From a virus (Duplodnaviria; Caudoviricetes), in IMG/VR virus record IMGVR_UViG_3300025838_000022, positions 58,798 through 122,797 of that record: a stretch of DNA of 64,000 bases; one strand, given 5' to 3'. Position numbers and translations under genes: made by a program. Under the pieces are notes generated by a model, which worked only from the letters and a program-made list of their open reading frames with translations, had not been told where the DNA came from and made no database searches. This document shows, piece after piece, positions 14,660 to 60,523 of the stretch (its first letter is position 1; each line of letters begins with the position of its first letter).

Positions 14660-14680
14660 CCCGAACGAAGCAAACCAAGA

Positions 14681-14708
14681 ACACCTGAGCAAGTGTAAAA
14701 ACTGCTCA
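14681..14708 (+). ncRNA. H-type pseudoknot element between tRNAs
   Basis: ACAC-C-TGAGCA-A-GTGT-AAAAAC-TGCTCA; same architecture as the copies at 54593 and 56936. Confidence 0.6.
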
Positions 14709-54170: not shown

Positions 54171-54563
54171 TTACTCGGTTACAATCTCAATTACGTCATC
54201 ACCCGCAATTGCTTTCTTCATAACATCGTTGGCTCGTTTAAGAACCATAGCAGCCTTATCAAACGTAAGACCAAGCGTGTGGCCTTTGTTGTCAACACCA
54301 CCAGTGATGATAATGTCACCAACAATAAGATCAGTCATACCATATGAGTCAACCCATAGAGCAGAACCAAACGCATTGATTTCTGGTTCATTAACCAACT
54401 TACCTTCATCGTCAATCCACATGTCGACATCCAATGATGGCAGGTGAATGCATTGGATTGTACCTCCTCCAATGGCTGCCTTAATTGTCTCATATGATTT
54501 AGACTCATCAAAGTCAACAACATCAAGGTTGTTGTCTGAGGTAACGGTAATTGCATACTTCAT
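54171..54563 (-). CDS. DUF3846-family protein
   Basis: 'IGGGTI..I.......MWIDDEGKL...N......D.IVGDIIITG'. Confidence 0.78.
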   Translation of the reverse strand: MKYAITVTSDNNLDVVDFDESKSYETIKAAIGGGTIQCIHLPSLDVDMWIDDEGKLVNEPEINAFGSALWVDSYGMTDLIVGDIIITGGVDNKGHTLGLTFDKAAMVLKRANDVMKKAIAGDDVIEIVTE

Positions 54564-54592
54564 TTTGTGTCCTAACTGTTTGTGGGTTTAAT

Positions 54593-54622
54593 GGAGCAGT
54601 TTCACCACATGCCCCAGGTGGT
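54593..54622 (-). ncRNA. H-type pseudoknot leader element
   Basis: - strand ACCAC-CT-GGGGCA-T-GTGGT-GAAAC-TGCTCC. Confidence 0.65.
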
Positions 54623-54632
54623 TACTACATTA

Positions 54633-55262
54633 CTACTGAGGCCAACCGATTTGAATTTCCTTACCATTGATAACAATGGTCTTAGGCTGCTGAACAACTA
54701 CAGGTTCAACAACCTCAGGTTCCTTAGCTGCCTCATCAGTCATACTAGACGCCTGAGCAATAATGTTAATCATCTCTTGAACATCATCTCTTGTTGGCGT
54801 CGTTGGCCAACTAGGTGTTGATACAACTGGAACAGTTGCAACTGCTGGAGTGATAGCAGTTAATGGTGGTGGAGTAGCAGGCGGAGTGTATCCCATCTTG
54901 CCTACTCGCACACTGCTAGTGTTGCTAGCGTTAGGCATCCATACCTCTGCACGGCCATCGTCAACACACCTAGCAAGCATGCTTTCCAAGAACCATTTAC
55001 GCGCTTCAGTCTGTGTGTCAAAGCATTCACGCACCGTATTAACTAGGTGCTCAATGGTTGCCTTAGCGATCTCAGGCGTTTCAAATGTCAGGGCGGCGAA
55101 TGTATGATTAGCTCGACCCTTTGGATGCCATGATTTTCGTATCTCAACTTTGCATGGTACCTTGTTACTCACCGTGAAAGCGTAGTCAATCACGTCACGG
55201 GTGCGGTTGGAGTTCCAACCACGACCGTCCTTTTTCTTAAGCCAAACCATGTCTTTTGACAC
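54633..55262 (-). CDS. Hypothetical protein (paralog of 56078-56491) with P/T-rich tail
   Basis: Shared 'RK....AN......F.....AK......FDT..E...WF' core. Confidence 0.6.
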   Translation of the reverse strand: MSKDMVWLKKKDGRGWNSNRTRDVIDYAFTVSNKVPCKVEIRKSWHPKGRANHTFAALTFETPEIAKATIEHLVNTVRECFDTQTEARKWFLESMLARCVDDGRAEVWMPNASNTSSVRVGKMGYTPPATPPPLTAITPAVATVPVVSTPSWPTTPTRDDVQEMINIIAQASSMTDEAAKEPEVVEPVVVQQPKTIVINGKEIQIGWPQ

Positions 55263-56077: not shown

Positions 56078-56491
56078 TCAGATTGGGTAACCAGCATGGA
56101 TTGAACTTGGCAAAGAAGTTCTTTGTTCTGGTAAAGGAGCATCTTTATAGTCATTTAATTGTTTAATAAACCATTCTTCTCCTTCTTTAATAGTATCAAA
56201 CATAATAGTTGAAGCATATAATAAAGAATCTAAAAAAGATTTTGCAACATAACTGCTTCTAAATTCTTTTCTCATAACAACAACGTTAGCTACTTTCTTA
56301 CCTTCAGCACATTTTCTGACTATAAGAACAGCGTTCTTATTGATAATGCCACCATGCTGACCAGCTTTTAAAGTAAAAGATAAATCTACTTGGTGTGAAT
56401 ACCAACGGTGATTTGGTTTGGTCCTTGCTGTCCAAATCAAATCATCATACGCATAAGAACGTCTCCATTGTAATTGTCTACCTACCATCAT
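56078..56491 (-). CDS. Hypothetical protein (paralog of 54633-55262)
   Basis: Shares the paralog core motif; AT-rich coding sequence. Confidence 0.55.
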   Translation of the reverse strand: MMVGRQLQWRRSYAYDDLIWTARTKPNHRWYSHQVDLSFTLKAGQHGGIINKNAVLIVRKCAEGKKVANVVVMRKEFRSSYVAKSFLDSLLYASTIMFDTIKEGEEWFIKQLNDYKDAPLPEQRTSLPSSIHAGYPI

Positions 56492-56720
56492 TCTCCTTGG
56501 GTACAAACATATTGATTGCTTCTTCAATTGCTCGCTTAGCTATTTGCTTATTAACTTCTCCATTCTCTGAATCAATAGCCATCATCATGCCATCCATGTC
56601 ATTGGCTAATCCCTGAAGTAACTCTTCAAACTTTTTGTGAAACAACTTTGATTGTTCAGGGTCATCAAACGTAATGTTAATTTGCAAGTTAGGTCCTTGT
56701 TGGTTGCATTCAATCTGCAT
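56478..56720 (-). CDS. Hypothetical protein
   Basis: ORF immediately downstream of the putative large ncRNA. Confidence 0.55.
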   Translation of the reverse strand: MQIECNQQGPNLQINITFDDPEQSKLFHKKFEELLQGLANDMDGMMMAIDSENGEVNKQIAKRAIEEAINMFVPKENDGR

Positions 56721-56739
56721 AATACTTCTTTCTTACTAG

Positions 56740-57497
56740 TGGATTAGGTGGGCCCGTTGGACGTTCGGGTGGAGCCCATACCCTACACACCGTAACCTCG
56801 GTGTCTCAGTCCAGCTCAGTGCTGGCAACCCCGTCTATTCAATAGGCTTCAGGTTACCTACATAAGCTTCCCCTTATGTTGAGTCCGTGTCTGCATCACA
56901 TCGCGCATATGCTGTCCATGCAGACACAAGAAAGGGGGACAGTTTAACCACATGTCCCAGGTGGTTTGAGCGTCTTCACCGGTACTCGCGCTCACTAGCA
57001 CAATGGTTCCTATCTCTACCTACCAATAAGTATAGATTCTCACGCTCCTCTGCGTGTGTTCTTTAAGGCATCCACTAATCTCCTGCACCGGCTTCCCCCA
57101 TGTGCTGAGTGTGTTAACTTATAATCTCGTAGGATCATATTCCGGTACATCATAAGCTAACAACAGTTCCCGTACACACAATAAAGCATGTACGGGATCG
57201 CCAGTTAAGCTAGCGCAGCTACCACTTTAAAGCCGGTGGCCATGGCATAAGTGGACAGGTTTAAGGAGAGCCTCCGATCCTATGCACACTTCCTTATGCA
57301 CTAAGCATTCTTTAACGCAGTTTTTGATCTGCGAGTACATAGTTCTCTGACCATAGCACCATCCAAGCAACCATACTCCGTATCAATGGCCTAGCAGCCC
57401 CGTCTTTTCAAGAGGTACGGCTGTCTCCGGATAGGGTTTTGACGATAACCCTCCACATCGTCTTACTACTAACTACGCTTGTGAGAAACGCGTGAAG
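56740..57497 (-). ncRNA. Putative large structured non-coding RNA (about 750 nt)
   Basis: No ORF of 60 aa or more on either strand; more than 12 helices, long-range pairings and 3 pseudoknots; G.U pairs favour the - strand. Confidence 0.65.
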
Positions 57498-57665
57498 TTA
57501 GTCGTTAGAGCTAGTGCCCAATACTGCGCGGGCATTGTTGATCATGTCGTCGTAGCTAGGCATTGAAGACAAGTCAATGCCCATAGGCTTAAGCGCATTA
57601 GTAATCTCTTCGATTACATAAAGCAAGTTCAAGCCAAGCTTTCGATAACCTTCTGCTTCAGTCAT
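57498..57665 (-). CDS. Hypothetical protein
   Basis: Probable ATG at 57665 after an AGAAGGTGAG RBS. Confidence 0.45.
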   Translation of the reverse strand: MTEAEGYRKLGLNLLYVIEEITNALKPMGIDLSSMPSYDDMINNARAVLGTSSND

Positions 57666-57666
57666 G

Positions 57667-58044
57667 TTACTCACCTTCTTTCTCGAGCCAGTGGTCCTGG
57701 TGACCACAGCCATCCTTGGTGCCATCACACTCAGGGTGGTGCTCATTGTGGATAGCAAACGGCGCACCAAGAACCTTGATGGCTTCCTTCTGCATCATGT
57801 CATACAGAATGTTGACCTGGTTAAGCGCAAGGCGCAGACCCAGAGGGAACACAACGGAGAGCTTCTCCAAGTCTTCCTTGGATACCTCATCCTCGGTAAG
57901 GATGTTGGCTACACCAATGAAAGGCTGAAGCACAGTACCCATCTTGGTACCCCAATCCTTGATGGCATTGAGGAACTCTGCGTGAGCAACACGTGCAAGT
58001 GTTGCATCGTCAAGTGCAATGTCACCGAAGTTAAAGTCTTCCAT
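57667..58044 (-). CDS. Hypothetical protein
   Basis: ATG at 58044 after AAGGAG. Confidence 0.6.
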   Translation of the reverse strand: MEDFNFGDIALDDATLARVAHAEFLNAIKDWGTKMGTVLQPFIGVANILTEDEVSKEDLEKLSVVFPLGLRLALNQVNILYDMMQKEAIKVLGAPFAIHNEHHPECDGTKDGCGHQDHWLEKEGE

Positions 58045-58160
58045 GATATCTCCTTGTTGTTTATTGTTGCACCTATTTGGTGCATCTGGGTGTAGCCACA
58101 CCTCATACGTGTGTGACTACACCCAGGCACTTGGGTATCTAGTTACCCAAAGACTTCGTG

Positions 58161-59624
58161 CTACAGACGACCAAGAAGCGCCTTGCGGATAGGACCGGCA
58201 GGCTTGTTGATAAGCTTACCAGCCTTGAACATCTTGACCGCTTCCTCGACGGAAGGGATCATGATGATCTTGTGCTTCTTGACCAGCTGAGCGCACTGGA
58301 GGATAATGTCGTCGTTCTGACCGCCACCGTCAGAGGTGACTTCACCATCTGAGACCCAGACGATTGGCTCGTTGGGGTGACGGTTCTTGATACCCCACAC
58401 CAGAGCAGGACCGTCGACGCCGTTGCCAGCACCACCGATATTTGGGATCTCACGTACACGCCAGCCACGTTTGGCGAGGAGCCACGCATTGGCAGAGGTG
58501 TAGTGAGTCTGACTGTATGCGAGGATGGTCGCAGCAGGCGCTGCCTCGACAATCGCTTCGATGTCTTGCTGTGACAGAGACATAGAACCTGAGATGTCGA
58601 CGATGACCATGCCACCCTTGACGCGTACCTTATTGGTAAAGATACGACGCTCGGGGTCAGTGTACCAACGGCTAACGTTGCCGAGCTTACGACCGACCAA
58701 GGCAGGCTTGCGCTTACGATTCATGAACCCCTCGACCTGGACAGACAGTGGAAGCGTGTCGTCAATGACAAGCTCCGCAAAGTCTCCATCCTCGTCGTGT
58801 GGGAACTCGTAGTCGTCAGGCAAGTCGTCCTCGAGTGGAGTCTGGTCAGGGTCAAGACGGTTAGCATCTTGCTCCGCCTGACCATACTCCTCAAGGATCT
58901 TGTCTTCCTCCTCCTGGCGCTGTTGGGCAACGCTGCTAGGAGAACGCCTACCGTTGGCATAGTTGGCAATCTCAGAGGCTGCAACAAGAGTGTTGTTGTA
59001 ACCCCTCGGACCCACTACGTCGCTGCTGTAGTGGTATGGCATGGTAGAGCCAAGGTCACCCGGTGTACCGTCAAAGATACTAGTGAGACGACCAGCAAGC
59101 TTACGCAGCATGTCGCTCCAATCTGGGTTCACAGAGCGTACGCCAGCAGCAAACGAATCGAATGCTGACTTGTTGGCGTAGTTACGCACGGTGAATTCAA
59201 CTGCATCTTCCCAGTCGTTAGGGCTGCCAGCAGTTGCCATACGGATACCTGACTTCTTCTCCGCACCGGTGGAGTCAAGCTCAAGACCCTTGATCTTGGC
59301 AAAAGGCTCAGTAACAGCGTTGATACGAGCCTCCTCCGCAAGATTGAGAAGAGCCCTGGTGACACCATTGTGCTTGTAAGACTCAGCCACTACCTTGGCA
59401 ACCTCCTCAGTCTGAAGACCGACGCGGGCGCGGATGAGCTCACGCAGCTGCGTACGACGGGACCAGTCGTCCCCCCGAAGGGGGACGGCCAGTACCTTCG
59501 CAGCCCAGTCGACACCTACACCCATCTGGCCCGTAGTGGGCTCGACAGTCCAGGTAGTCGTCTCGGCTATGTCGTCACGGAACGCAGTGATTGCCCCTAC
59601 AAGGGGCTTCTGCTCGTCAGCCAT
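58161..59624 (-). CDS. VWA (MIDAS) domain protein, partner of the MoxR ATPase
   Basis: 'IVDISGSM' (DxSxS), 'WVSDG'; N-terminal peptidase-like region with 'EEARIN'. Confidence 0.8.
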   Translation of the reverse strand: MADEQKPLVGAITAFRDDIAETTTWTVEPTTGQMGVGVDWAAKVLAVPLRGDDWSRRTQLRELIRARVGLQTEEVAKVVAESYKHNGVTRALLNLAEEARINAVTEPFAKIKGLELDSTGAEKKSGIRMATAGSPNDWEDAVEFTVRNYANKSAFDSFAAGVRSVNPDWSDMLRKLAGRLTSIFDGTPGDLGSTMPYHYSSDVVGPRGYNNTLVAASEIANYANGRRSPSSVAQQRQEEEDKILEEYGQAEQDANRLDPDQTPLEDDLPDDYEFPHDEDGDFAELVIDDTLPLSVQVEGFMNRKRKPALVGRKLGNVSRWYTDPERRIFTNKVRVKGGMVIVDISGSMSLSQQDIEAIVEAAPAATILAYSQTHYTSANAWLLAKRGWRVREIPNIGGAGNGVDGPALVWGIKNRHPNEPIVWVSDGEVTSDGGGQNDDIILQCAQLVKKHKIIMIPSVEEAVKMFKAGKLINKPAGPIRKALLGRL

Positions 59625-60382
59625 TACAGCGACACTTCCGTGCTAAGGGTGCCGATACGGATGGCGTCGATGATGGGCTCAGCCATCTTACCGAACACCA
59701 GCTTGGCAGCACGCTCAGTGGTGAACAGAGGGCTGTTACGCAGCGTCTGGAATTCCTTCCAGGCACGGAGCGAAGCACGCTCACCGGGACGACCAGCGAC
59801 GATGGTGGCAGCCAGCATGCGCAACTCTGGCGGCAATGCAGAGACCAACGCAGCTGGGTGAGCAGCGTCAATCTTGATTGCAACCGGGAAGCGGTCACGC
59901 AGCGGACCCTCAATCTCGTTGGGGTCCTCGAAGTTGGTGGTCATGATGGCAGAGAAGCCCTCACGCGGTAAGTGAACCTCACCGGTGTAAGGGTTCTTCC
60001 AGACCGCCGACTCCGGGCTGTCAAGGAACTTCATCAGCGTGGTGACAACGTCACCGCTGGCACGGTTGATCTCGTCAACAACGAGACGACCGCCAACAGT
60101 ACCGTCACCATCCCAGGTGATTGGCCCGATGCCCTTGACGTAGTTGAAACCACCACGCTCGTTGGGAAGCATAGAACCAACGATGTCAGCGTTGGTCATG
60201 TCCTCGGAGCAGAGGAGGGTCTCGAACCCAGCTGCATTGATGTGCAGGGTCTGGGCTGAATACGTCTTGCCAGTGCCGGGGGGACCGTAGAGGATGACAC
60301 GCTTGCAACCTGCAGCGAGCACATCGTTAAGGTCAATGAAGCACTGGGGAATCGGGATTCCCTCGATGAATTCAGTGGTCAT
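59624..60382 (-). CDS. MoxR/CbbQ-like AAA+ ATPase
   Basis: GPPGTGKT, 'VVDEINRA', 'MTTN', 'LRDRF'; coupled (TAATG) to the VWA gene. Confidence 0.88.
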   Translation of the reverse strand: MTTEFIEGIPIPQCFIDLNDVLAAGCKRVILYGPPGTGKTYSAQTLHINAAGFETLLCSEDMTNADIVGSMLPNERGGFNYVKGIGPITWDGDGTVGGRLVVDEINRASGDVVTTLMKFLDSPESAVWKNPYTGEVHLPREGFSAIMTTNFEDPNEIEGPLRDRFPVAIKIDAAHPAALVSALPPELRMLAATIVAGRPGERASLRAWKEFQTLRNSPLFTTERAAKLVFGKMAEPIIDAIRIGTLSTEVSL

Positions 60383-60452
60383 AATATGTTTCTCCCTGTG
60401 TTTAACGGTGCTTGGGAACACCGGGCACATACCTGGGTTGGTATGTGAACCG

Positions 60453-60523
60453 TACTGCAGGTGGGAATTGAACCCACAACCTACCTGGTTAACCAGGTTG
60501 CTCTACCATTGAGCTACTGCAGT
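60453..60523 (-). ncRNA. tRNA-like RNA with a non-canonical 6-nt palindromic anticodon loop
   Basis: ACTGCAG TA GCTC AATGGTA GAGC A ACCTG GTTAAC CAGGT AGGTT GTGGG TTCAATT CCCAC CTGCAGT A. Confidence 0.8.

Follow-up and report, generated by a model that had tools for sequence, protein, structure and literature searches.

Genomic setting of the ORF-free gap

What does the longest stretch without open reading frames in this phage DNA give rise to? In the window (the whole stretch of 64,000 nucleotides analysed here), positions 56721-57497 hold no ORF of at least 60 aa on either strand; these 777 nt form the longest such gap, the runner-up measuring 329 nt, and the preliminary description was right to single it out as the only gap of its size. 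Folding of the gap gives an MFE z-score of -3.9 for the minus and -3.5 for the plus strand, and its G+C exceeds that of the downstream flank. Gene order and orientation around it are identical in the 26 loci compared: AAA_5 ATPase, vWA protein, F2, the RNA described below, F3/F8 and F0. In the window these neighbours are:

59624-60430, minus strand: AAA_5 ATPase (Pfam AAA_5)
58161-59624, minus strand: F1, 487 aa, with a C-terminal vWA domain (weak vWA fold matches)
57667-58101, minus strand: F2
ending at 57498, minus strand: small ORF upstream of the array
56478..56720, minus strand: F3, 80 aa, acidic (pI 4.5), its start codon directly 3' of the RNA
56081..56488, minus strand: F0, about 136 aa, basic (pI ~9.8)

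The MIDAS motif of F1 (DxSGS) is invariant in 37 homologues, and a fold search with its N-terminal ~300 residues gave no match. F3, without a Pfam or PHROG match, follows the array immediately or as the second gene in the loci compared (synteny, 26 loci), and F0, which has a longer paralogue at 54636-55262, comes one to three genes after it wherever the sequence of a locus extends that far. Searches of Pfam, PHROG and structure matches revealed no recognisable RNA-binding domain in the neighbouring proteins, and Pfam and PHROG gave no metabolic annotation for the downstream genes. We found neither a terminator-like site between the RNA and the next gene nor a promoter or terminator signature bracketing the array.

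Comparison with catalogued RNA families

The gap RNA is a previously uncatalogued family, outside Rfam 15. At the gathering score, cmscan of the full window against Rfam 15 returned tRNAs only; a permissive scan (E<=10) of 56400-57800 gave no match within the gap, and five other arrays of the family (see below) had zero matches at E<=1. The suggestion that the gap holds a divergent GOLLD or ROOL element is not upheld: the covariance models of GOLLD (RF01998, for which a match to the model, that is to the conserved 3' half with its pseudoknots, was the criterion tested) and of ROOL (RF03087) are unmatched in the window, in the gap (E<=10) and in the five other arrays (E<=1). The alternative offered at the same time, a new large ncRNA class, agrees with a minus-strand RNA that falls in no Rfam 15 family. 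Models of tmRNA, RNase P RNA and group I/II introns gave no match, and ARAGORN found five tRNAs, no tmRNA and nothing in the gap, in line with the lack of tmRNA, RNase P and group I hallmarks remarked on before.

Type III toxin-antitoxin RNAs are arrays of tandem near-identical repeats of ~34-45 nt beside an endoribonuclease toxin gene. We rejected a relationship to them (ToxI, CptI, TenpI): the units described here are 165-310 nt long, with diverged sequences and differing architectures, and a Pfam toxin domain is absent from all ten neighbouring proteins. In the GenBank phage collection there was no DNA match, near or distant, and no match to the F1 protein. The bioRxiv preprint 10.64898/2026.10.21.760802 contains nothing pertinent to the array.

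Organisation of the array

Alignment of homologues shows an array made of a 5' domain followed by three tandem pseudoknotted units of ~200 nt, each of which would fold independently. A unit begins with its core, in which CUCA is followed by a hairpin of 7 bp capped by GGGAAG, a second, short hairpin and UAA; H-type pseudoknots and hairpins come next. The unpaired CUCA, GGGAAG and UAA are invariant and framed by covarying helices. In the list below, paired segments are separated by a slash, and R1 denotes the model of the core.

57486..57512, minus strand: 5' boundary box AGCUCUAACGACUAACUUCACGCGUUU, 27 nt, near-identical in four divergent members (alignment A7)
57309..57485, minus strand: 5' domain, an H-type pseudoknot and further hairpins (alignment A7), the hairpins outside the pseudoknot being predicted
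57457-62/57441-46 (stem 1) and 57447-52/57433-38 (stem 2), minus strand: pseudoknot of the 5' domain, also in L015
57107..57308, minus strand: u0 (type A), R1 match of 23.6 bits, E 0.007 (alignment A3)
57295-301/57282-88 and 57278-81/57264-67, minus strand: u0 HP1 and HP2
57244-46/57231-34 (stem 1) and 57236-40/57221-25 (stem 2), minus strand: u0 pseudoknot
57210-15/57199-204 and 57186-97/57168-79, minus strand: u0 HP3, with a CUUAA loop, and HP4
~57113-57161, minus strand: u0 long 3' hairpin, predicted from the sequence only
56881..57112, minus strand: u1 (type B), R1 match of 48.5 bits (alignment A4)
57098-105/57085-91, minus strand: u1 core HP1, with the GGGAAG loop
57052-54/57043-45 and 57022-25/57004-07, minus strand: u1 small hairpins
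56989-93/56968-72, minus strand: u1 GAGCG hairpin
56961-64/56948-51 (stem 1) and 56954-58/56936-40 (stem 2), minus strand: u1 CUGGG-type pseudoknot
within u1, minus strand: invariant pyrimidine tract CCUUUCUUGUG
56918-27/56887-96, minus strand: u1 terminal hairpin
56721..56886, minus strand: u2 (terminal type), R1 match of 65.2 bits (alignment A5)
56873-79/56860-66 and 56856-59/56844-47, minus strand: u2 core HP1 and HP2
56822-25/56811-14, minus strand: u2 hairpin
56780-83/56767-70 (stem 1) and 56772-77/56750-55 (stem 2), minus strand: u2 3'-terminal pseudoknot

The core of u0 is degenerate (CUUAG, AGGAAG loop). The pseudoknots of the array carry A-rich linkers, and the 3'-terminal one, ~30 nt ahead of the next start codon, is followed by an unstructured linker, the RBS AAGAAAGAAG (56726-35) and ATG; some 15-30 nt separate this RBS from the last pseudoknot, which does not sequester it. 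At the other end, the boundary box overlaps the stop codon of the upstream small ORF and occurs once in the window, and is thus not a recurring phage promoter. The extent first proposed (56740-57497) is largely retained, the start moving slightly farther upstream, to this box.

Covariation and strand

As judged from compensatory changes among homologues, the gap is shown to encode a strand-specific, conserved structured RNA on the minus strand. About 100 base pairs of the array are backed by such changes, being 95-99.5% paired as against 19-55% in slid controls, which bears out the large structured phage RNA proposed earlier. The core hairpin is 99.4% paired over 47 copies, with covariation at 7/7 pairs, and is recovered independently by RNAalifold. 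For u0 (A3, 16 sequences), 38 pairs are 99.5% paired and 25 have changed on both sides (slid controls 25-45%); for u1 (A4, 8 sequences), the figures are 37 pairs, 95% and 20 (slid controls 26-48%), and for u2 (A5, 7 sequences), 25 pairs, 96.6% and 7; across the three alignments the slid controls span 19-48%. The covarying helices contain 109 G.U cells versus a single A.C cell, which settles that the RNA is read from the minus strand, as the flanking genes are; on the opposite strand, pairing in the array helices drops to 84-90%. These are firmer grounds for the minus strand than those given originally, whose example (GGUAACC/GGUUGCC) is broken in L003, L017 and L026.

Several helices of the preliminary description are recovered: 56887-96/56918-27 shows covariation in homologues (A4), 57168-76/57189-97 belongs to a stem of 12 bp, of which 9 covary (A3), and 56967-72/56989-94 covaries at 4/5 pairs. 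Of its three pseudoknots, that at 56936-66 covaries in both stems and that at 57433-62 has stem 1 changed from GACGAU/AUCGUC to CAUGAU/AUCAUG in L015; the one at 56749-83 is recovered with a nearly invariant stem 2, but a nested alternative partner of stem 1 pairs equally well. The GCATAAG helix (57245-51/57293-99), for its part, competes with the conserved core hairpin, its two sides lack complementarity in L021, and the long-range pairings 57086-94/57230-38 and 56982-89/57331-38 have no counterpart in L003. What had been seen as a single ncRNA of ~750 nt is a structured RNA, but not a monolithic fold closed by long-range helices: it consists of tandem, separable units of ~200 nt.

Other pairings were considered. 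A putative helix that would close the core by joining CUCA to a UGAG farther on is 60% paired, which shuffles equal; an ACUC/GGGU pairing was suggested by RNAalifold in the terminal unit only. Neither the invariant pyrimidine tract nor the downstream RBS is, as judged by eye, a consistent partner of the GGGAAG loops across members, and both were rejected.

Distribution among phages

The core pattern matched 7 IMG/VR and 31 metagenome stretches, mostly with 2-6 copies on one strand, and ~20 distinct metagenomic phages (lake relatives) bear 2-6 units at the same locus. The terminases of the carrier phages are nearest to those of large Rhodococcus, Gordonia and Mycobacterium phages. Within the searched data, pattern and model matches show an RNA family that appears confined to a clade of metagenomic phages with an actinobacterial-phage-like terminase. 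Eight matches in bacterial genomes, all single and in diverse taxa, and five single metagenome matches (L020, L022, L033, L036, L045) were judged to be due to chance, since R1 recognises none of them. The window carries both marks by which we delimit the family: the CUCA/GGGAAG core (three R1 matches) and at least two tandem gene-sense units between the vWA-protein/F2 genes and F3/F8.

When R1 was run on the window's whole genome, it matched the three units only, and in five other phage records one array per record only, so that all units lie in a single array of 2-6 units in 6/6 phage records searched whole. Between phages the unit types are shuffled and their number ranges from 2 to 6; in L015, for instance, six units stand ahead of a single gene, and in L015 and L026 what looks like a leftover RBS, AAGGAG, lies between units. 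Compensated pairs and the invariant core are retained by all units of all arrays, and all the close relatives examined, with an F1 sharing 51% identity or more with that of the window, have an array; together these facts argue for sustained purifying selection.

Units also occur outside arrays. L058, whose F1 is 45% identical, has three single cores in three separate intergenic gaps, each with a pseudoknot, then an SD, then a start codon at its end. Single units in leaders are absent from the clade of the window itself (six records searched whole). The terminal pseudoknot precedes an F0-like gene in L063, and the CUGGG-type pseudoknot of u1 is also found ahead of other genes and tRNAs. For the latter, the evidence consists of the pairs that the exact-pattern scan did not itself constrain; stem pairs collected by regex were excluded because the regex demanded pairing. 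Common in phage metagenomes and sited precisely before genes and tRNAs is a small CUGGGUAU...AAACUGCCC pseudoknot, which is absent from Rfam; seven pseudoknot loci searched against Rfam gave no match.

Possible function and alternative explanations

What might such an array do? Our preferred reading, to which we give a probability of roughly 0.45, is that of a leader or intercistronic RNA embedded in an operon and offering repeated recognition sites and protective pseudoknots. The array would be transcribed within the leftward operon and, in that transcript, serve as a leader or intercistronic RNA of several modules. In each unit the invariant core would be one copy of a recurring site recognised by a single shared factor, protein or RNA, while the pseudoknots, foremost the 3'-terminal one, might shield the downstream cistrons from nucleases or from misfolding with the RBS. 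Extra units would add binding or protective capacity, which would account for their variable number while each remains under selection. The single units of L058, the L063 pseudoknot and the placement of the CUGGG-type pseudoknot suggest leader-like behaviour; on the other side, the neighbouring proteins show no recognisable RNA-binding domain, F0 does not strictly co-occur with the core and singleton leader units are lacking in the window's clade, all of which count against this reading. A comparable arrangement is the autoregulatory leader of T4 gene 32, described as a 5' pseudoknot, an unstructured tract and the RBS (PMC10690425). In both, an early mRNA of a phage has an H-type pseudoknot tens of nucleotides before the RBS, the linker being rich in A/C or A/U; in the array, however, this pseudoknot comes at the end of a multi-unit RNA of 0.8 kb, and no gene for an ssDNA-binding protein follows.

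It is possible, though rather unlikely, that the array is instead a free-standing, trans-acting large ncRNA, excised or separately transcribed into a stable particle that serves as a multivalent decoy or scaffold for a factor of host or phage, or self-assembles through its invariant loops in the manner of GOLLD and ROOL. Its size, the density of covarying structure and the invariant loop nucleotides would fit such a particle, as would the confinement of core matches to one array in each of six records and the conservation of each of the 2-6 units even where no gene comes after it; six units before one gene in L015 exceed the need of a simple leader and favour an RNA with a function in its own right, and the conserved 5' box could be a start or processing site. 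However, that box, being unique in the window, is no recurring promoter, the array lacks a promoter or terminator signature around it, its 3' end continues directly into the RBS of the next gene, L058 has single units in ordinary gene leaders, and there is no likeness to the GOLLD/ROOL models. Since it lies inside an operon and no terminator precedes the next gene, the array may be a leader or intercistronic RNA in place of a free-standing one.

A bolder idea, which we hold to be a long shot, is that the array gives bacterial viruses their first counterpart to the nuclease-resistant or decoy RNAs of other viruses. The xrRNA and dumbbell elements of flavivirus 3' UTRs are duplicated junction-plus-pseudoknot modules in series (cf. 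PMC11702639). They share with the array conserved junction nucleotides, covarying stems, a copy number that varies between viruses and a location at the border of regions needing protection, but differ in virus type, sequence and fold, and a ring-like topology would be conjecture for the array. The modules might stall or titrate a host RNA-decay enzyme (at a guess, actinobacterial RNase J, a 5'-3' exonuclease) or an RNA-binding defence factor; downstream early mRNAs would be protected, and a stable multi-unit RNA would remain and soak up the factor. In a variant, the basic F0 would bind the GGGAAG hairpins and form a repetitive RNP. The AF2 model of F0 (pLDDT 87), a beta-sheet with two helices, is weakly like the RNA-hairpin-binding coat proteins of ssRNA phages: Foldseek gave nothing significant, and in VIA-align the best match was PsiB (Z 5.2), levivirus coat proteins scoring Z 3.3-3.8. 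Since it has no clear structural relative and its occurrence is not strictly tied to the core (F0 is present in the core-less L062 and was not found in the examined part of the core-bearing L058), a coat-like, hairpin-binding role of F0 is a low-odds lead only.

Improbable, too, are tandem riboswitch-like aptamers, in which the core junction would bind a small molecule and either tune F3/F0 expression or soak up the ligand. Invariant unpaired nucleotides within covarying helices, pseudoknots with A-rich linkers as in preQ1-I and SAM-II, and a position directly upstream of a gene speak for them. Yet H-type topology with an A-rich linker is all that the array has in common with those aptamers; riboswitch models (preQ1-I, SAM-II etc.) are unmatched in the gap, the five other arrays and the seven pseudoknot loci; the unsequestered RBS leaves no evident expression platform; up to six serial aptamers of differing architecture would be unusual; and the downstream genes are without metabolic annotation. 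Even less probable is an evolutionary relic, a functionless pile of gene leaders left by the loss of intervening small genes. The similar unit that stands singly before three genes in L058 and the AAGGAG remnants of L015 and L026 are what such a history would leave, but the compensated pairs and invariant core kept by all units and the presence of the array in every close relative examined point to selection. A DNA-level element (replication origin, packaging site or recombination hot spot) with hairpins in DNA is hardly tenable: a long non-coding stretch rich in inverted repeats would suit it, but the pairing is strand-specific, the linkers of the pseudoknots are A-rich, apart from the core we noted no recurrent motif of a binding site, and the G+C is above, not below, that of the downstream flank. 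Several short proteins encoded in the gap are barely credible, for its ORFs of 30-59 aa are not conserved even in the closest relative, L003, and substitutions in the stems are compensatory, the pattern of an RNA and not of codons.

Relation to known systems and significance

Operons of Rsr (Ro60) and Y RNA occur in bacteria and mycobacteriophages. Like the locus described here, they place tandem structured ncRNAs in an operon just 3' of the gene for a vWA-domain protein. We nevertheless rejected this identity: TROVE (PF05731) is absent from a six-frame search of the 122.8-kb record, with control genomes positive, the F1 model matches vWA domains only, and weakly, and the Y RNA models are unmatched. 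A catalogue of structured RNAs mined from IMG/VR, the same data source and with the same type of evidence, lists 8,495 unnamed short candidates with a mean of 67 nt (PMC10690425). Single hairpins or pseudoknots of the array family may be among these candidates; the modular array of 0.6-1.4 kb is not described in the main text of that paper, which reports short motifs.

GOLLD and ROOL (PMC12286853) resemble the array in being phage-borne RNAs of several hundred nucleotides, dense in structure and pseudoknots and found by metagenomic covariation, and this phage also has tRNA genes. They differ in that the array matches them in neither sequence nor structure and is composed of separable ~200-nt units, variable in copy number and shuffled in type, inside a protein-coding operon. 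To our knowledge, large intricate RNAs of unknown function are rare, and each well-studied one has brought new biochemistry. The array adds a different building principle, in which a few kinds of self-contained pseudoknotted modules with one shared invariant core are strung in varying number and order at a fixed site of an early phage operon. With ~100 supported pairs and 47 independent copies of the core, it is ready for structure probing, cryo-EM and pull-down. If its modules bind or block nucleases, actinobacterial phages would manage host RNA metabolism or defence by means of RNA, and not by proteins alone.

Results

A conserved non-coding gap in a phage operon

The longest gap of the window (56721-57497; 777 nt, the runner-up being 329 nt), which is devoid of open reading frames of at least 60 aa on both strands, as a preliminary description had stated, encodes a conserved, strand-specific and modular structured RNA that constitutes a new family with a fixed operon position. 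The window is the final 64 kb of a 122.8-kb IMG/VR record (completeness estimate 82%), whose large terminase is nearest to those of large Rhodococcus, Gordonia and Mycobacterium phages (41-44% identity); the label "actinophage" previously given to this virus is thus reasonable. Around the array, the minus-strand (leftward) arm consists of small, tightly packed genes. The G+C content is 0.45-0.52 in the gap versus 0.31-0.38 immediately downstream, and the sequence folds better than dinucleotide shuffles by 3.9 SD on the minus strand and 3.5 SD on the plus strand. No Rfam 15 family was found inside the gap, either at gathering score or at E<=10, and ARAGORN predicted nothing there, in agreement with the earlier statement that hallmarks of tmRNA, RNase P and group I are absent. 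The family is described neither in Rfam 15 nor in the literature searched; fragments of it may be present in a 2023 catalogue of short structured RNA candidates from IMG/VR (PMC10690425).

Six related IMG/VR loci, retrieved via the neighbouring 487-aa gene, each have a 570-710-nt non-coding gap at the equivalent position and orientation, and nhmmer connects these gaps to that of the window. A core motif recurs in every copy and invariably lies on the gene-sense strand; it consists of CUCA, a GGGAAG-loop hairpin, AGG...CCU and UAA. An exact-pattern scan for this core returned 7 stretches in IMG/VR, with no stray matches, and 31 in metagenomes, most with 2-6 copies; eight single matches in bacterial genomes were rejected by the later core model. 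Removal of duplicates left about 20 distinct arrays, in which the strict core occurs 2, 3, 4 or 6 times. The core covariance model matched the complete 122.8-kb record at three units only, and its matches in five other phage records were confined to single arrays of 2, 4, 2, 6 and 3 units.

Modular anatomy of the arrays

Cut at the core, the arrays resolve into units of 165-310 nt, arranged back to back without spacers. These belong to a few recurring types, which are shuffled between phages.

Recurring unit types
Type A: core, H-type pseudoknot, CUUAA-loop hairpin, 12-bp hairpin, then a 3' hairpin or second pseudoknot
Type B: core, small hairpins, GAGCG...CGCUC hairpin, CUGGG-type pseudoknot, invariant CCUYUCUUGUG tract, closing hairpin
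Terminal type: core, hairpins, strongly conserved 3' pseudoknot

The window array comprises a 5' domain followed by one unit of each type.

Elements of the window array
57486-57512, minus: 27-nt box, kept in four divergent members
57309-57485, minus: 5' domain, carrying a further pseudoknot
57107-57308, minus: first unit (u0, type A), with a degenerate core (CUUAG, AGGAAG loop)
56881-57112, minus: second unit (u1, type B)
56721-56886, minus: third unit (u2, terminal type)

All type-B units carry the single-stranded CCUYUCUUGUG tract 3' of the pseudoknot; in the window it spans 56925-56935 (minus). The window copy shows complementarity to the RBS of the next gene, which is unusual (AAGAAAGAAG, 56726-35), but other members do not share this complementarity. 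Between two units of the six-unit array of L015 (1195-1215, minus), and at the homologous position in L026, the sequence AAGGAG resembles an RBS and precedes a very short, unconserved ORF; this may be the remnant of a lost gene.

Covariation and strand

In the alignment of 47 core copies, 99.4% of the cells are paired and all 7 pairs of the hairpin changed on both sides (slid controls, 15-55%); RNAalifold, unaided, predicts the same hairpin. The 16 type A sequences, including u0, support 38 pairs with the pseudoknot counted (99.5% paired, 25 changed on both sides; slid controls, 25-45%). The corresponding values are 37 pairs, 95% and 20 for type B (8 sequences), and 25 pairs, 96.6% and 7 for the terminal type (7 sequences). 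Since these alignments mix within-genome paralogous units with between-genome orthologues, the significance derived from shuffle controls is somewhat overstated, and more reliance can be placed on the slid controls and on how many independent pair types occur. A nested alternative to stem 1 of the terminal-type pseudoknot pairs equally well, which leaves three options for this 3' element: a pseudoknot, an extended hairpin or a switch.

G.U cells number 109 versus a single A.C cell in the core, type A and terminal-type alignments (type B was left out of this tally), and pairing drops to 84-90% when the same helices are read on the opposite strand. These figures point to a minus-strand RNA, as previously proposed, and argue against a DNA structure; that the gap is a DNA element appears very improbable.

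The three local hairpins initially described (56887-96/56918-27, 57168-76/57189-97 and 56967-72/56989-94) and all three H-type pseudoknots were recovered. The helix 57245-51/57293-99 competes with the conserved core hairpin, the two proposed long-range helices are absent from relatives, and the pairing of GGUAACC with GGUUGCC is not preserved in them. On this comparison, the array RNA would resemble beads on a string more than a single, globally closed fold.

Operon context and distant relatives

The gene order is constant and co-oriented in 26 loci: AAA_5 ATPase (F4), F1 (~490 aa), F2, an optional small ORF, the RNA, an optional F8, F3, F0 and F6. The DxSGS MIDAS motif of F1 is invariant, and its confident model (pLDDT 87.6) weakly matches vWA domains, including NorD of NorQ-NorD complexes; on these grounds F4 and F1 resemble the pair formed by a MoxR-type ATPase and a vWA protein. 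On a bacterial-looking metagenome contig of 255 kb, lexA and nrdR flank an AAA_5/F1 homologue pair (L061:4306-6887) with 31% identity; this placement suggests a cellular, possibly SOS-linked, origin for the phage pair. No TROVE/Ro60 protein was found in the phage record. F3 is acidic and F0 basic; two paralogues of the F0 family lie downstream of the array (56081-56488 and 54636-55262, both minus). In the AF2 model of F0 (pLDDT 87), two C-terminal helices back a beta-sheet, and the fold has no clear relative; PsiB ranks first in the structural comparison (Z 5.2), and scores of Z 3.3-3.8 were obtained for several ssRNA-phage coat proteins. Just before the AAA_5 ATPase gene, within the operon shared with the array, ARAGORN reports a tRNA of undetermined identity (60452-60523, minus; "tRNA-???", two-base anticodon "ta"; Rfam tRNA, 59.9 bits).

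More distant relatives were gathered through F1 homologues. In two loci at 48% F1 identity, the expected position is occupied by gaps of 616 and 734 nt. L058 (45%) has three single core copies in three separate intergenic gaps, each of which closes with a CUGGG-type pseudoknot followed by an SD and start codon; L062 (44%) has an F0 homologue and neither gap nor core; and L063 (39%) has a 378-nt leader before an F0-like gene, with the terminal pseudoknot and a core-like hairpin bearing a different loop. Arrays are the rule in the clade of the window, and the arrangements in L058 and L063 indicate that units can exist as ordinary gene leaders. One unit-containing leader (L058:9530-9570, plus) opens with a tRNA-like minihelix, in which a 6-bp acceptor-like stem surrounds a T-arm with the loop UUCGAUU.

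The CUGGG-type pseudoknot

The small H-type pseudoknot of u1, S1-CUGGGUAU-S1'-UAAAC-UGCCC, is a motif in its own right.

Copies of the CUGGG-type pseudoknot in the window
56936-56964, minus: inside u1
54592-54622, minus: upstream of a gene whose start is at 54563
14680-14708, plus: 3 nt before tRNA-Pro

Rfam 15 has no entry for this motif, which is widespread in IMG/VR phages: exact matching of the pattern gave more than 120 stretches (a lower bound), against a roughly estimated chance expectation of ~5. In 100 non-redundant copies among the matches listed, the pattern leaves two stem pairs unconstrained, and these are formed in 100 and 97 copies, respectively, using all four Watson-Crick types (slid controls, 24-40%). 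Among these copies, 8 lie 3-7 nt upstream of a tRNA gene, 37 are followed within 60 nt by an SD and start codon, and only 2 have a core upstream.

Discussion

We favour, with a probability of roughly 45%, the view that the array RNA is an operon-embedded leader or intercistronic RNA, for which we infer a mode of action: each unit would offer the invariant core to one common factor, and the pseudoknots would protect or insulate the downstream cistrons. This preference is due to the absence of flanking transcription signals in a search around the array, to the last pseudoknot abutting the next RBS and to the presence of the same modules ahead of genes in L058 and L063. The main rival, a free-standing non-coding RNA that is multivalent or self-assembling, is consistent with the large arrays (as many as six units), their single-copy placement and the conserved 5' box; we consider it rather unlikely. 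A tandem-aptamer array seems improbable, and a relic of lost genes even more so. That the gap encodes small proteins is the least credible reading of all.

The location of the CUGGG-type pseudoknot before genes and tRNAs suggests that it may serve generally as an upstream element in processing, end protection or insulation, and this upstream placement colours the reading of the large array RNA.
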